From NCBI GenBank assembly GCA_051888775.1, contig JBJFCE010000050.1, positions 24,879-88,878 of the forward strand: a stretch of 64,000 nt of DNA, read 5' to 3'. This DNA comes from Lachnospiraceae bacterium (GTDB taxonomy: Bacteria; Bacillota; Clostridia; Lachnospirales; Lachnospiraceae). A program made the translations under genes and the position numbers. Of this stretch, positions 2,969-42,796 are shown piece by piece. Under the pieces are notes generated by a model. It was not told the origin of the DNA. It ran no database searches and saw nothing but the letters and a program-made list of their open reading frames with translations. Numbering within the stretch: position 1 is the stretch's first letter; the number at the start of each line of letters is the position of its first letter.

Positions 2969-3146
2969 AACAGTTCAGCCTGAGAAGGAGCCGGAAGGGT
3001 ATGCTTGTGTATCCGGCGGCCCTTTGAAAACGCCGGTACTTAGCGAGGTATTATCGAGCTTAGTACCGCTACATTTGAAACGGAGCGGGAGCGTGCCGCA
3101 GGATACACAAGCATACCCTTCCGGCTCCTTCTCAGGCTGAACTGTT
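2969..3146. repeat. long-hairpin intergenic element E1 (B-type core)
   Basis: Left arm 2969-3014 is the exact reverse complement of right arm 3101-3146 (46/46). The 86-nt core 3015-3100 is related to the E4 and E6 cores. Sits between the GT2 stop (3155) and the pyruvyl transferase start (2949). Flanked by the 7-nt direct repeat ctctttc (2958-2964 and 3148-3154). Confidence 0.9.
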
Positions 3147-7958: not shown

Positions 7959-7993
7959 TTTCCGAATATCCTCTCAAAAACCGTGTGTCTGCC

Positions 7994-8196
7994 AGGCATT
8001 TGCAAAACTCTGCCCGTGAACCGGAGCCGGTGCTTACCAGCTTGTCGGTAGCGGGCACGCTTTCGCTACACTTCGCCCGTAGCGGTACATAAGGCACCAA
8101 AATACGGTGCCTAAGTACCGACGGACTCACAGTGCCCGCAACCGACAAGCTGGTAAGCACCGGCTCCGGTCCACGGGCAGAGTTTTGCAAATGCCT
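7994..8196. repeat. long-hairpin intergenic element E2 (A-type core)
   Basis: Arms 7994-8058 and 8132-8196 are complementary at 63 of 65 positions. 73-nt core 8059-8131: gctttcgctacacttcgcccgtagcggtacataaggcaccaaaatacggtgcctaagtaccgacggactcaca. Lies between ORF 8207-9844 (stop) and ORF 6768-7958 (start). Confidence 0.9.
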
Positions 8197-8206
8197 TATC
8201 GTACTA

Positions 8207-9844
8207 TTACGGTTCCGTCTTTTCAAAATCATAATACGGCTCAGACAGGCGAAGTACAACCGTGTCCCCTACGACCGCTACAGATTCTGCGGACGGCCAG
8301 TCTTCCATTCCTGCATAGGTATCAGTCTGTAAAACAGCAGACAGCTCCTCGGTAGTCGCATCTTCCAGCGAGATCCCCTCGTACCGGTCAAGCAGAATCA
8401 CATAATCCCTCTGAATCCGCATGATATAATTCGGAACCGTTCCGTCCAGATCGGGTGGAAAATTATGGATTGTATCATTGCTCCCCGGAAGCACACCCAC
8501 GACCGCCAGCTTCGTGACCTCTCCGTTTTCATACTCGGGCAGCTGCTCGATCCGATCCGCCATCCGGCTGATCACGGCAAGTGATCGTTCGTATGAGGTC
8601 TGCATCCTTGCATACACGATATTCGCAGTCAGGATAAAATTATATACCACCAGCACCAGCGCGATAAATACTGCCCAGCGATAACCCTTTTCACATTGCT
8701 TTCTTTTGGAGTTTTCTTCTGCCGCAACATCCTTCATATCCAAAAATACGCCCCGTTCAAACAGCACGATCAGGAATACATAAAATAATGCGATGCTTTC
8801 CAGCATAACCGTATGATACAGCATCGCCTTTGAAATAAAATAATAAAAATACGTACAAAGCGGAATAAAGCCCGCAAGCACTACCGATAATACGAGCTTT
8901 CCGGGCGTTTGATATAGTTTTCTGCGAAAAACAACCGCCAGAACACCCACGATCAGCAAACAGGTCACAATCACGTTCATAACAATATATAGAGTGATAC
9001 CTCTCTCACTATAAAACAGAAAGCTGAAATAATCATGAAATGACTGATATACTCCATCTATGAACTGCTGCAGATCCGGAAGTCCCATTCCGGTAATGCC
9101 CTGATAATCGGAAAGCGCCACATTTTCCAACCGAAGCAGGACGTTGTAGGAGATCACATACAGGATCGCTCCGCATGCCCCCGCAATCAACGGTCTGATA
9201 TACTCGCGCAACAGTCCGGACACCTTACAGTCATCCAGTAACATTCTCTGAAGCCCGTACACCAGCACCAGCACCATCGCATACAGGATATATGCCTGAT
9301 ACATCCCAAAAGAGAAACAGATCATCAATGCCGCTGCCACCAGGCTTCTTTTACTTTTTCTGCATAATGCAAGATGGATCGCAAGCGTTGCCAGCATCAT
9401 TGCAAAAAAATACCCGTCTGCCGTATACATAAATGCAAATGTACAGGTGACTGCCGGGAACGTTACCATGATCGCAGACACAAGAACAAGTGACAAGGGA
9501 TTACGCAGTCTCAAAATCTTCGTAATGCCGATCACGGAAACCGAAAGATACATGAGCGACAACAGACCGATCACCCACGGTATATCATAAAAAGAGCTGA
9601 TCCCGCAGCCGAGTATCAAAAAGCATCTTCCAAGATGAATCGTATTCTCTGCGCTGTAATAGCTCGGAATCGAATCATAGTTCGGAAGATAATTCGTAAA
9701 CTTAAACATATGCGCAAGGAATCCGAATACAAACACGGAAACAACGCAGATCACATATTCTTTTTTGATTTTCTGTTTCAGCATTCCGAAAAAACGATAC
9801 GGTTCCATGATAATCTCCATTCTTCCTGTGCGCATCTCTTTCAC
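8207..9844 (-). CDS. GtrII-like polytopic membrane protein, paralog 2
   Basis: 545 aa. Carries TNYLPNYD...GRCFLILGCGISSFYDIPWVIGLLSLMYL and a C-terminal MEDWPSAESVAVVGDTVVLRLSE. Several in-frame ATGs lie near the 5' end, so the start is uncertain. Confidence 0.55.
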   Translation of the reverse strand: MKEMRTGRMEIIMEPYRFFGMLKQKIKKEYVICVVSVFVFGFLAHMFKFTNYLPNYDSIPSYYSAENTIHLGRCFLILGCGISSFYDIPWVIGLLSLMYLSVSVIGITKILRLRNPLSLVLVSAIMVTFPAVTCTFAFMYTADGYFFAMMLATLAIHLALCRKSKRSLVAAALMICFSFGMYQAYILYAMVLVLVYGLQRMLLDDCKVSGLLREYIRPLIAGACGAILYVISYNVLLRLENVALSDYQGITGMGLPDLQQFIDGVYQSFHDYFSFLFYSERGITLYIVMNVIVTCLLIVGVLAVVFRRKLYQTPGKLVLSVVLAGFIPLCTYFYYFISKAMLYHTVMLESIALFYVFLIVLFERGVFLDMKDVAAEENSKRKQCEKGYRWAVFIALVLVVYNFILTANIVYARMQTSYERSLAVISRMADRIEQLPEYENGEVTKLAVVGVLPGSNDTIHNFPPDLDGTVPNYIMRIQRDYVILLDRYEGISLEDATTEELSAVLQTDTYAGMEDWPSAESVAVVGDTVVLRLSEPYYDFEKTEP

Positions 9845-11350: not shown

Positions 11351-12925
11351 TTAATTTTCCGAAGATCCAATCTTCACAACGAGTACTCCGTCAATCTCGG
11401 CAATGGATCCCTCTGCCGGATAAACCGGCATTTTAGAAAGCTCTGCACTTCCCTCTATCATCTGTATCTGCTCCTTTGTCACTTCTCCAAGCGGAAAATG
11501 CAGATATTCCTTCATGTATTTATAAACCGCCTCATAGCTGTACCAAGGTTTAATCTCCGTTCCTGATACGTTTTTCAACTCTTCAAACTCAGGTATAGAT
11601 ACCTCATAATGATCATTAAAAATCTGACTGCTTCCGGCAAAATAGACCGGCATACCCTCTTGCCATTCCTGCGTTTCTTCAATCCGCACTGCAGTCCGGT
11701 TCAGAAATGTAGCCACTTCCTGCGTTGCTGCATCCAATCTGTGATATGCCATATTGCAAACGTAAAATCCGGAAACCACTGTTACTGCACATGTGATAAC
11801 AACTGTCCATTCTGCAGTATGCATCAAACAAACCTGATCCGACCATCTTTGCGCAACCGTCTCCATCACTGCGAGTAACAGCAGATAAGTCATGATCACG
11901 GAAAACAGCATATAATTATCTACACCGCTTCCGACACGGTCTCCCATTAAAAACGGAGCTGCATTTACGCCAAGCGGAAACAGGCAAAACAGCAGAATTA
12001 TCTGTGTCTTACCGGATTTTTCCCGCTGTCGAAATGCCCTGACAAGCAAAAGCAACAGTACTACCGCTGCCACATAATTTGCCACAGTCGGTATGAGTCC
12101 GTTATTGTATTCTGTTGTAAAAAAGTACCTTAAAAAGTAGATATACGCATATACAAAGCCTTTTACAAGCCCCTTCAGTGTAAAGGATGTCATCTCGTCC
12201 ACACCATGATAACTTCCCATGGTAATACCCGTAACCTTCAGTGCAATCTGCAAAAGGACATAGTACAGAATAAAACCGACTACCATCATTCCAAGATACT
12301 TCAGGCTCTTCAGCACAAGTTCCTTCCATGCCACATCCCGCCTAAGAACATCAAGCAACAGAATGGCAAATACGACTGCTATGGCAACAGACAGAAACGG
12401 CTGGTAGCATCCAAGCGATATGCACATACAAAGTGCACCGCCGATATATCCCCGCCTATACTTCTGTGTCAACCAGACTGCTCCGACTGCCAGACACATC
12501 GAGATACAGAAAATGTCACTGTTGACCCCGTAGGAAAGATAGCTTGCAATCCCCGGAAACGTAACCACAATACCGCCCGCCAATGCTGCAAACAGCATAG
12601 AACGGAGCTTCAGACAATCCACCAGCATATATACTGCTATCGCAATAACCGTCAATGCCAGCACACCGTTTATGGCAGCTGAGCTGAAATAACCGCTGAC
12701 TGCTGTCACGATCGGCAGAAATACCCTTCCCATTGCCAAAGTATCGCTTTTTTCATACGGCATCGTGGAAAAAATATTTCCCATCTCAAAGTAATTATAA
12801 AACTTATTCGTAATTATATACAGATGTGTTATCAGCCCGCATAAAAAGGCTGTAAGCGCACCTATGCAGGGAATTCTGTTCCTGCCGATAAATGCTTTGA
12901 TACTTTCTGTCGGTGAATCTTTCAT
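11351..12925 (-). CDS. GtrII-like polytopic membrane protein, paralog 3 (most divergent)
   Basis: 524 aa, multi-span. Carries GRVFLPIVTAVSGYFSSAAINGVLAL and the C-terminal MPVYPAEGSIAEIDGVLVVKIGS block shared with the other three paralogs. Confidence 0.45.
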   Translation of the reverse strand: MKDSPTESIKAFIGRNRIPCIGALTAFLCGLITHLYIITNKFYNYFEMGNIFSTMPYEKSDTLAMGRVFLPIVTAVSGYFSSAAINGVLALTVIAIAVYMLVDCLKLRSMLFAALAGGIVVTFPGIASYLSYGVNSDIFCISMCLAVGAVWLTQKYRRGYIGGALCMCISLGCYQPFLSVAIAVVFAILLLDVLRRDVAWKELVLKSLKYLGMMVVGFILYYVLLQIALKVTGITMGSYHGVDEMTSFTLKGLVKGFVYAYIYFLRYFFTTEYNNGLIPTVANYVAAVVLLLLLVRAFRQREKSGKTQIILLFCLFPLGVNAAPFLMGDRVGSGVDNYMLFSVIMTYLLLLAVMETVAQRWSDQVCLMHTAEWTVVITCAVTVVSGFYVCNMAYHRLDAATQEVATFLNRTAVRIEETQEWQEGMPVYFAGSSQIFNDHYEVSIPEFEELKNVSGTEIKPWYSYEAVYKYMKEYLHFPLGEVTKEQIQMIEGSAELSKMPVYPAEGSIAEIDGVLVVKIGSSEN

Positions 12926-21431: not shown

Positions 21432-21488
21432 AGTTCCTCCAAGTCATTTCTATTTTAGTCATTTGTAAAGTTCTGTCAGAAGGTGGAT

Positions 21489-21625
21489 CGGTTGCCCACA
21501 GACCTGTCAGCGGTGGGCACGCTTTCGCTACACCTCGTCCGTAACGGTACATAAGGTGCCAAAATACGGCACCTAAGTACCGACGGACTCACAGTACCCA
21601 CCGCTGACAGGTCTGTGGGCAACCG
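21489..21625. repeat. long-hairpin intergenic element E3 (A-type core)
   Basis: Arms 21489-21520 and 21594-21625 are complementary at 31 of 32 positions. Core 21521-21593 differs from the E2 core at 7 of 73 positions. Weak outer pairing (catttg/caaatg, tgtcag/ctgaca) extends to about 21460 and 21654. Confidence 0.85.
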
Positions 21626-21669
21626 CTTGTACTGCTGACAAAATTGCTCAAATGTCCGATTTCCGATAG

Positions 21670-21856
21670 CAGTTCATCCGATGAGGCTTTTGCACGGTAC
21701 GTAAGGATATGTTGTATCCGGCGGTCCTTGAAAAACGCCGGCACTTGGCGAGGTCTTTCCGAGCCTAGTGTCCGCTGCGCTTTTCACGGAGCGAGAGCGT
21801 ACCGCAGGATACAACATATCCTTTCGTACCGTACAAAAGCCTCACCGGATGAACTG
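21670..21856. repeat. long-hairpin intergenic element E4 (B-type core)
   Basis: Arms 21670-21719 and 21807-21856 are complementary at 47 of 50 positions. Core 21720-21806 is related to E1 and E6. The arm tip cagttcatcc resembles the E1 tip cagttcagcc. Confidence 0.9.
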
Positions 21857-34036: not shown

Positions 34037-34066
34037 AAGGCTTCCTTCCCTACTTTTCCATGTGAG

Positions 34067-34140
34067 TTTCTGCTTTATCTGCCCTGCTTTGCCGCATGGA
34101 TTTCTGGTTTATCTTCCCTGCTTTGCCGCACGGATTTCTG
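34067..34140. repeat. 34-bp tandem direct repeat (2 copies plus 6 nt) spanning a gene's 3' end
   Basis: 34067-34100 (tttctgctttatctgccctgctttgccgcatgga) and 34101-34134 (tttctggtttatcttccctgctttgccgcacgga) are identical at 31 of 34 positions. 34135-34140 repeats tttctg. Copy 2 contains the last codons and the stop of ORF 34109-34735. Confidence 0.9.
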
Positions 34141-34735
34141 CCAGATTTCCTTCAATATCATCCGTGACCTCCGCCACTTCATCGCTTTTTCCGAATACGA
34201 CTTTTACGGTCATCCAAAGCACCTTAACATCCATGGCAAAGCTCAAATGCTCCACATATTCCACGTCCTTTTCCAGACGTTTATCCCATTCAATGTAATT
34301 CCTGCCGCTCACCTGTGCAAGTCCGGTCAGTCCCGGACGCACTGTATGGCGCAGCTTCTCACGCTCCGTATACCACGGCAGATAACTGACTAACAGAGGG
34401 CGCGGTCCGATCAGACTCATATCGCCTTTAAAAATGTTCCAAAGCTCCGGCAGTTCATCCAGACTGGTCTTTCTGAGAAACAGACCAAACTTCGTCAGAC
34501 GCTCACTGTCCGGCAAAAGCTCCCCGTTCTCATCCCTTGCATCCGTCATGGTACGGAACTTGCAAAGCGTAAAGATCTTCTCATGATAGCCCGGTCTCTT
34601 CTGATGAAAGATCACCGGACTTCCAAGTTTCACGCGCACCAGTACCGCTACAATCAGATAGACGGGGCTTAAAATCAGCATGCCGAAAAGTGATATGAAA
34701 ATGTCAAGCAGGCGTTTGATACAATGTTGGTACAT
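34109..34735 (-). CDS. PglC/WcfS-type small monotopic phosphoglycosyl transferase
   Basis: 208 aa. KRLLDIFISLFGMLILSPVYLIVAVLV...KFRTM...LDELPELWNIFKGDMSLIGPRP...PGLTGLAQVSGRN. Confidence 0.85.
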   Translation of the reverse strand: MYQHCIKRLLDIFISLFGMLILSPVYLIVAVLVRVKLGSPVIFHQKRPGYHEKIFTLCKFRTMTDARDENGELLPDSERLTKFGLFLRKTSLDELPELWNIFKGDMSLIGPRPLLVSYLPWYTEREKLRHTVRPGLTGLAQVSGRNYIEWDKRLEKDVEYVEHLSFAMDVKVLWMTVKVVFGKSDEVAEVTDDIEGNLAEIRAAKQGR

Positions 34736-34765: not shown

Positions 34766-34918
34766 GGGATGGCCGGCAGGGCAGATGGTTTTAGGTGTAA
34801 GACACGCTCTCGCTCAGTTTCAAACGCAGCGGTACATAAGGCAGTAAAATACACTGCCTAAGTACCGGCGTTTTCAAATGGTCTTACACCCAAAACCATC
34901 TGTCCTGCCGGCCATCCC
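34766..34918. repeat. long-hairpin intergenic element E5 (A-like core)
   Basis: Arms 34766-34803 and 34881-34918 are complementary at 36 of 38 positions. Core 34804-34880 contains ...cgctcagtttcaaacgcagcggtacataaggcagtaaaatacactgcctaagtaccggcgttttcaaatg. Confidence 0.9.
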
Positions 34919-35019
34919 TGCTCGTTCTGATCCTGCATGCGAAATGCCATGTGTTTACAAATAATATTTCTGCACATGATGTTTCACTGTCTGCAATATG
35001 GTTGTTGGCAGTTTGCCCC

Positions 35020-35274
35020 GTGTCCGGTCAAGGCGGGTTCACAGCGGATGCGATCATTCGTTCTATAGGGCTTACGGATGGTATGCGATGGTATCTTGTG
35101 TCTGGAGGTCCTTGAAAAACGCCGGCACTTAGCGAGGTATTTTCGAGCTTAGTGTCCGTTGCGTTTTTCACGGAGTGAGAACGTGCCGACAGACACATGA
35201 TACCATCACATACCATCCGCAAGCTCTATAGAACGAATGATCGCATCTGCTGCGAACCTGTCTTGACCGGACAC
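35020..35274. repeat. long-hairpin intergenic element E6 (B-type core, longest arms)
   Basis: Arms 35020-35104 and 35190-35274 are complementary at about 77 of 85 positions. Core 35105-35189 is related to E1 and E4. Confidence 0.9.
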
Positions 35275-42597: not shown

Positions 42598-42796
42598 GGT
42601 GCTTGTGAAGCTTTGCCGGCAGGGCGGTACGGGAATCCAACACCTGTCAGCTGCGGGCACTGTGAGTCCGTCGGTACTTAGGCACCGTATTTTGGTGCCT
42701 TATGTACCGCTACGGACGAAGTGTAGCGAAAGCGTGCCCGCAGCTGACAGGTATTGGATTCCCGTACCGCCCTGCCGGCAAAGTTTCGCAAGCACC
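42598..42796. repeat. long-hairpin intergenic element E7 (A-type core, inverted relative to E2/E3)
   Basis: Arms 42598-42660 and 42734-42796 are complementary at 60 of 63 positions. The reverse complement of core 42661-42733 differs from the E2 core at 1 of 73 positions. Confidence 0.9.

Follow-up and report, generated by a model that had tools for sequence, protein, structure and literature searches.

The window analyzed here, a stretch of 64,000 nucleotides from a Lachnospiraceae genome contig, contains seven copies (E1 to E7) of a palindromic, non-coding repeat of approximately 200 nt. The genes neighboring these elements are all on the minus strand, and the copies that lie in operons fit tightly between the stop codon of one gene and the ribosome-binding site of the next. 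In E2, two long arms flank a conserved core that carries an apical hairpin at its tip, and the predicted folding energy of the whole is far below that of shuffled sequences (z = −18 to −20). The features of E2 and the cores of its sister copies are listed below; strands are those predicted to fold, minus for E2, E3 and E5 and plus for E1, E4, E6 and E7.

E2 whole element, 7993–8197: ends CAGGCATTTGCAAAACTC...GAGTTTTGCAAATGCCTT; 65-nt arms, 97% complementary, flank the core
E2 conserved core of ~99 nt, 8050–8148, minus strand: match to covariance model R1 at 100.4 bits
E2 side mini-hairpin GC-GAAA-GC, 8059–8066, minus strand: GNRA loop on a 2-bp stem that co-varies across the family
E2 apical hairpin, 8084–8119, minus strand (the strand inferred to fold): GGTAC/GTACC clamp, internal loop, 7-bp stem and 7-nt loop
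E2 apical stem, 5′ arm, 8092–8098: AGGCACC on the plus strand, co-varying
E2 loop, 8099–8105: AAAATAC on the plus strand, GUAUUUU on the folded strand; family consensus AAARNAC / GUNYUUU
E2 apical stem, 3′ arm, 8106–8112: GGTGCCT on the plus strand, co-varying
E1 core (B-type), 3006–3101, plus strand: apical stem with tandem G·A
E3 core (A-type), 21512–21610, minus strand: apical hairpin at 21546–21581
E4 core (B-type), 21711–21807, plus strand
E5 core (A-type), 34797–34895, minus strand: apical hairpin at 34831–34866
E6 core (B-type), 35095–35191, plus strand: loop GTATTTT
E7 core (A-type, inverted), 42644–42742, plus strand: apical hairpin at 42673–42708

On the plus strand the letters of the E2 apical hairpin are GGTAC ATA AGGCACC AAAATAC GGTGCCT AA GTACC, and its internal loop carries a conserved U·U mismatch (A·A on the plus strand). 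The pattern GGTAC-N10-AAAATAC-N9-GTACC has four matches in the window compared with 0.07 expected from shuffles, at 8084, 21546 and 34831 on the plus strand and at 42673–42708 on the minus strand. An initial annotation of the window had drawn attention to this hairpin, and the coordinates that it gave for the stems and loops of E2, E3, E5 and E7 are all exact. The three different A-type stems that it described (AGGCACC/GGTGCCT, AGGTGCC/GGCACCT and AGGCAGT/ACTGCCT) are fully paired, and the B-type stems are as it wrote them, agcGAgg/tcGAgct in E1 and E6 and ggcGAgg/ccGAgcc in E4. The hairpin observation is confirmed, and is statistically robust.

Other points require qualification. The AAAATAC loop, which had been called invariant, is indeed so among the four A-type copies of the window, but in the source genome as a whole it is found in 84 of 118 parsed A-type copies (the remainder being AAAGTAC, AAAACAC, ACAATAC and others) and the family consensus is AAARNAC. 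Likewise, the GGTAC/GTACC clamp is present at the base of all of the window's A-type hairpins, but across the family the clamp pair itself co-varies (U-A 64, C-G 44, C·A 20). Finally, the A- and B-type stems had been recognized as equivalent, though not that they are one motif on opposite strands; in an alignment of the seven window cores the E6 loop, GTATTTT, is the reverse complement of AAAATAC, and the two types are one family read on opposite strands.

Two pairs of elements, E3+E4 (21460–21856) and E5+E6 (34766–35274), consist of an A- and a B-type copy side by side with their folding strands opposite, and adjacent insertions are also seen at 9110–9529 of contig C103 of the source genome and in locus L036 of another genome. 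The window also contains, at 34045–34146, three tandem 34-nt units (CTTCCCTACTTTTCCATGTGAGTTTCTGCTTTAT and variants, 68–74% alike) that are unrelated to the hairpin elements.

Fold and covariation of the core

When the complement of the A-type strand is folded, the core becomes a nearly continuous helix from the arms to the loop, interrupted by several conserved features. First, at a three-way junction there is a side hairpin, a tetraloop on 2 bp of stem; both of its stem pairs co-vary, and its loop belongs to the GNRA class in 122 of 131 distinct sequences (GAAA 41, GAGA 37, GCAA 26, GGAA 7, GGGA 6, GCGA 3 and GUAA 2). Second, there is a conserved 2-nt YU bulge. Third, the U·U mismatch lies within the motif UUAG/CUUA, its two positions being U in 127 and 126 of the 131 sequences. 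Fourth, the apical stem of B-type and related variants contains tandem G·A pairs set in C-GA-G. The helix ends in an apical stem of 5–7 bp, free in sequence, with GUNYUUU as its closing loop.

Pairing was evaluated with a covariance model of the core (R1; 99 positions, 30 pairs) and an alignment of its 138 matches, of which 131 are distinct. Standard pairs occupy 93.7% of the pair cells in the distinct sequences, and 71.3% when the 3′ partners are shuffled, in an alignment that was fitted to the model and so favors structure. Changes on both sides are present in 25 of the 30 pairs, and the covariation score of 0.577 falls to 0.177 upon shuffling (none of 500 shuffles reaches the observed value) and to 0.09 or less when the partners are slid by 1–3 columns. 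An independent MAFFT/RNAalifold analysis of 61 sequences finds compensatory changes in 20 of 25 predicted pairs.

The five variable pairs of the apical stem are among those that co-vary most strongly, and all of them show double changes. Their compositions are G-C 78, A-U 33, C-G 12; C-G 70, U-A 37, G-C 17; G-C 45, A-U 23, C-G 19, U-A 18; C-G 64, G-C 40; and C-G 56, U-A 46, G-C 21. The initial annotation had proposed, from the few stems in the window, that selection acts on a folded nucleic acid, a reading that independent variation of the stem positions with frequent mismatches would have contradicted. The larger samples show no such pattern: 112 of 118 parsed A-type apical stems in the source genome are fully Watson-Crick, with nine different stems represented, as are 87 of 106 apical stems from other species, with 35 different stems. 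Together with the covariation and the retention of asymmetric features, this supports the proposal that the fold is under selection. The main argument lies in the bulge, the mismatches and the GNRA hairpin, whose conservation argues against simple copying of one arm from the other and for selection of the fold itself.

Which strand folds is a matter of prediction. With RNA parameters the complement of the A-type strand is the more stable in 123 of 147 non-redundant cores, and with DNA parameters it is favored by 88 to 50. On this strand purine·purine oppositions outnumber pyrimidine·pyrimidine ones by 109 to 47 in a hand tally, and single-transition defects in the apical stem are G·U there in nine cases as opposed to one. 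Counts of G·U and A·C in the core pairs give no polarity (100 and 87), and the assignment therefore rests on the GNRA loop, the G·A pairs and the folding energies, from which we infer that the folding strand is the complement of the A-type strand as written. Tetraloops of the GNRA class, tandem G·A pairs and U·U pairs are well known from RNA. On the DNA side, d(GCGAAAGC), a mini-hairpin noted for its unusual stability, has exactly the sequence of the A-type side hairpin. The core may fold either as RNA or as single-stranded DNA.

The loop is conserved in a different manner from the stem. Counted on the folded strand in the 131 distinct sequences, three of which have gaps through the loop, position 1 is G in 128 and positions 2 and 5 are U in 128, with position 6 U in 122 and position 7 U in 121; position 3 varies (A 72, C 37, G 10, U 9), as does position 4 (U 94, C 33, A 1). 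Five of the seven positions are thus 97–100% fixed among sequences that have a base at the column, over dozens of genera, while the stem below varies freely. The initial annotation had suggested a loop-specific ligand, which is plausible, conservation of this kind being the pattern that a sequence-specific reader of the loop would leave. The loop is not, however, indispensable for persistence, since solitary copies in single-copy genomes (loci L146, L147 and L148) retain long arms and most of the core with a tip that is lengthened or replaced, and have lost GUAUUUU. Two other identities for the hairpin were considered and rejected: mimicry of a tRNA anticodon loop, which G32 and U37 do not fit on sequence grounds, and descent from an ancestral single-copy RNA gene, as the solitary copies are at unrelated loci and have long arms, and three of five have altered tips.

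Copy number, mobility and distribution

The source genome is a metagenome-assembled genome of 2.35 Mb in 106 contigs (45% G+C, 95.8% complete). A hidden Markov model of the core has 273 matches in it, 176 of them full length, and the repeat makes up about 2% of the genome; the 175 full copies whose flanks are complete divide into 127 of A-type and 48 of B-type. A large number of the 106 contigs start or stop within a copy, and the repeat is a main cause of the fragmentation of this assembly.

The ends of the A-type copies are YAGGnGATTGCGAAACTC and its complement, both in the source genome and at about 25 loci of other species. B and C classes of ends are also present, and most copies in other genomes have none of the three recognized classes of terminal repeat, but other, unclassified ends. 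Well-preserved copies in the source genome are flanked by AT-rich direct repeats of 9–12 bp (for example ATGTCTTTTAT, ACTAAAGTATA and ATGAAAGTAT), and A-type ends with duplications of 11–13 bp also occur in Blautia, in Lachnobacterium and in another Lachnospiraceae metagenome-assembled genome, these being read by eye at three loci. The genome of a congener, G001, provides an empty site, with 35 nt (contig C48, 2822–2856) in the position at which the source genome has 448 nt comprising two adjacent A-type elements (contig C103, 9102–9549), the two contigs being collinear. Orientation relative to flanking co-directional genes is unbiased (32 and 41 for A-type copies, 12 and 15 for B-type copies).

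[quoted passage not shown] The element probably requires its core in order to spread. At the C103 site the stop codon of the upstream gene lies inside the element end (GATTGA), and the last residues of its product differ from those in G001. A second position in G001 (contig C48, ~12330–12355), orthologous to the site of the source-genome element at C103:21610–21818, has the sequence GAGTTTCGCAATTGCAAAACT, which resembles two A-type ends joined facing outward and could be a footprint or remnant.

There are six A-type hairpin derivatives in the source genome that lack the core (C56:22174–22277, C8:3184–3295, C100:15276–15348, C18:3183–3253, C76:485–596 and C10:1692–1808). Each has its own deletion junction and some keep their target duplications, but none has been amplified.

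The R1 model matches 61 of 151 sampled Lachnospiraceae genomes, corresponding to 60 of 150 genera (about 40%), and none of 146 genomes from approximately 61 other families of Clostridia; among the sampled genomes the family is confined to the Lachnospiraceae. A pattern scan of genome contigs for the apical hairpin and its 3′ flank returns at least 116 loci, and nearly all of those listed are titled Lachnospiraceae, with Mediterraneibacter, Acetatifactor, Hungatella, [Clostridium] symbiosum, Blautia, Dorea, Butyrivibrio and Otoolea muris among the carriers in the matches listed. No match was found in plasmids or phages (by BLAST of the core) or in IMG/VR (by pattern scan). The window contains no match to any Rfam 15 family at gathering thresholds; at a permissive E-value it returns MIR1437, at 86 bits where 168 are needed (a generic long-hairpin match), and GlsR9 at the chance level of E = 3.8. 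A full-text search of the open literature gave no description of the element family, and we regard the object as the structured core of an undescribed, family-wide group of MITEs.

The closest described analogues in kind come from the Bacillus cereus group: bcr1 and the other bcr repeats of group A (Okstad 2004; Klevan 2007; Kristoffersen 2011, as summarized in PMC3184786). These are mobile-looking, interspersed non-coding repeats of about 155 bp that are flanked by short direct repeats, have a non-conserved genomic distribution, are transcribed, and have a fold that is maintained by compensatory base changes. The likeness is in being a small non-coding repeat of a Firmicute clade with flanking direct repeats and a compensated fold. 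The two are unrelated in sequence, and bcr1 has 5-bp duplications and a two-hairpin, cruciform-like fold, in contrast to the single long hairpin, three-way-junction core and 9–13 bp duplications of the elements described here, which also have several kinds of ends and extend across a whole family, in about 40% of the genera sampled.

Other repeat classes share some of these properties. Correia/NEMIS elements of Neisseria, ERIC, RUP and YPAL are similarly high in copy number and intergenic or within operons, with long hairpins, terminal inverted repeats and target duplications (for the class, PMC3184786), but in those families what is conserved is the terminal repeat, which encloses a spacer or an IHF site, whereas in the present family conservation is highest in the interior core and it is the ends that vary. 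The REPIN/RAYT system resembles the present family in having hundreds of hairpin copies, pairing between halves and long residence in a clade. Its single-copy Y1 gene is usually flanked by repeats and no target duplication is made; membership is rejected, as the source genome has no PF01797 gene and target duplications are present, and the element is moreover larger, with a complex asymmetric core. In integron attC sites, too, the recombination site is a folded single strand of one polarity with covarying arms and conserved extrahelical features. However, attC sites have conserved outer ends and a variable center and are arranged in arrays with cassettes beside an integrase, none of which applies here.

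Search for a mobilizing enzyme

No autonomous element with the same ends was found in the source genome, 95.8% complete and with repeats often unassembled, or in the loci fetched from other genomes. Orphan ends in the source genome are contig ends or copies without a core, and the sole pair of ends spaced as far apart as 1.5 kb encloses a histidine kinase gene rather than a transposase gene. Small contigs of the source genome encode no transposase. A Pfam search of the same genome found no Y1_Tnp (PF01797), DDE_Tnp_1 (PF01609), IS66 (PF03050) or UPF0236 (PF06782) genes; it does have a single rve gene, which is broken, and three PDDEXK_2 genes, and no element lies near any of these. Clustering of the proteins encoded near 124 foreign loci revealed no recurrent neighbor. 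PDDEXK_2, an Rpn-like putative transposase family, is encoded by 44 of the 61 genomes with the element and by 39 of the 90 without it (odds ratio 3.4). The co-occurrence is weak, and because the family is missing from high-copy genomes (G161, G118 and G013) it is rejected as the required enzyme.

Explanations for the conserved core

Within the same copies in the source genome the mean minor-allele frequency is 0.08 in the core and 0.31 in the arms, and rare variants in the core amount to about 0.7% per site. The arms, highly polymorphic as they are, remain about 90% paired. Their mismatches have no wobble bias, either on the element strand (260 and 237 in A-type copies) or on the mRNA strand (201 and 186), and so give no sign of RNA-level host selection on the arms. 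At least three classes of ends are found on this one core, and most foreign copies have ends of other, unclassified kinds. This uniformity of the core among variable ends, with no amplified copies that lack it, fits selection on element lineages that keep the core; and as the hairpin is part of the core of a mobile element, selection is probably for the spread of the element rather than for a function at each locus.

The explanation that we favor, and think somewhat better than even, is that the hairpin is the tip of a folded core in Lachnospiraceae MITEs, and that its fold and loop are selected for propagation of the element. The element consists of variable ends, long and variable paired arms, and the conserved core of about 99 nt, which would fold as a single strand of one polarity, either RNA or single-stranded DNA. 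A trans-acting factor would read the loop and the conserved internal loops and would be needed for propagation, so that selection would act on self-copying element lineages and not on host function at the sites of insertion. Classical MITEs need only their terminal repeats, and the need for an internal core is not explained by that model, which requires terminal repeats alone; a MITE in which an internal folded core is the most conserved part contradicts the usual ends-only view. We also raise, as a speculative suggestion that has perhaps one chance in several of being correct, that a mobilization system specific to Lachnospiraceae, one that reads a folded strand of one polarity, recognizes the element by its three-way-junction core instead of by the terminal repeats. 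This would explain why one core is found on many unrelated arms and ends, why it is more conserved than they are, and why core-less derivatives are not amplified, and if true it would represent structure-guided transposition that still makes target duplications of 9–13 bp.

The core could instead have been domesticated by its hosts as a structured RNA, a cis-acting module of operon transcripts selected for a host function where it has inserted, such as a site for RNase III or other processing, a stabilizer, or a site for an RNA-binding protein. The GNRA tetraloop and the tandem G·A, U·U and G·U pairs are typical of RNA, the copies are tightly placed in operons between stop codon and ribosome-binding site, and comparable MITEs, of which bcr1 is an example (PMC3184786), are transcribed and act at the RNA level. 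However, given the unbiased orientation about half of the copies would be transcribed on the strand that does not fold, and among the mismatches of the arms wobble is not favored on the mRNA strand. There is no terminator-like tail in or beside E2, promoter-like matches there are at chance level, solitary copies are at non-syntenic loci, and insertion sites differ between congeneric genomes. We consider this explanation unlikely.

It is improbable, too, that the fold is under no selection and that the two halves of the palindrome are merely kept alike by copying, through hairpin-templated repair or fold-back synthesis. Such a process would account for outer arms that are polymorphic (0.31) and yet about 90% paired without strand bias, and for the many pair flips that are transversions (for example, C-G 64 and G-C 40 at one apical pair). 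But copying would erase asymmetric features, and those of the core have been kept across dozens of genera: the side hairpin and the 7-nt loop, the bulge of 2 nt, and the U·U and tandem G·A oppositions. Within one and the same set of copies, moreover, the core is much better conserved than the arms. Arm copying may well contribute to the outer arms without explaining the core.

A role in trans is more doubtful still. By analogy with the bridge RNA of IS110 and the TnpB ωRNA of IS200/IS605, a few copies might give rise to a core transcript that serves the mobilizing enzyme as RNA cofactor or guide, in keeping with the strand-specific, RNA-like features of the core and its conservation while ends and arms vary; that no mobilizing enzyme was identified also counts for it. 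Against it, no linked protein gene was found at the 124 loci, there is no variable guide-like segment next to the flanking DNA, duplications of 9–13 bp suggest ordinary staggered cuts, and the proposal is purely inferential. HUH enzymes typically read a fixed loop on a stem of free sequence that is extruded from a palindrome, and the apical hairpin could by its layout, a variable stem and a largely fixed loop on a long palindrome that would favor extrusion, be a cleavage or initiation site for such an enzyme (a Rep protein, relaxase or Y1 transposase). We think this very improbable, as the loop positions analogous to the T/A nick are the most variable ones, so that an HUH nick motif in the loop is rejected, and as the source genome has no Y1_Tnp gene (the HUH search being for the Y1 family), the elements are flanked by target duplications, whereas HUH transposition leaves none, and plasmids, phages and IMG/VR gave no matches.

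The 36-nt hairpin, with its free stem and fixed loop, offers a bait for its putative reader, which could be a transposase, a host nucleic-acid-binding protein or an RNase. The Lachnospiraceae are among the principal families of gut bacteria, and roughly 40% of their sampled genera carry the element, in many cases within operons. Masking, assembly and strain typing of Lachnospiraceae genomes can also make practical use of the covariance model. One further arrangement of the core is seen in another genome (G009), in which a non-coding locus beside an ftsH-like gene (L005, 1494–2547) consists of 4.5 tandem units of 235 bp with one core in each.
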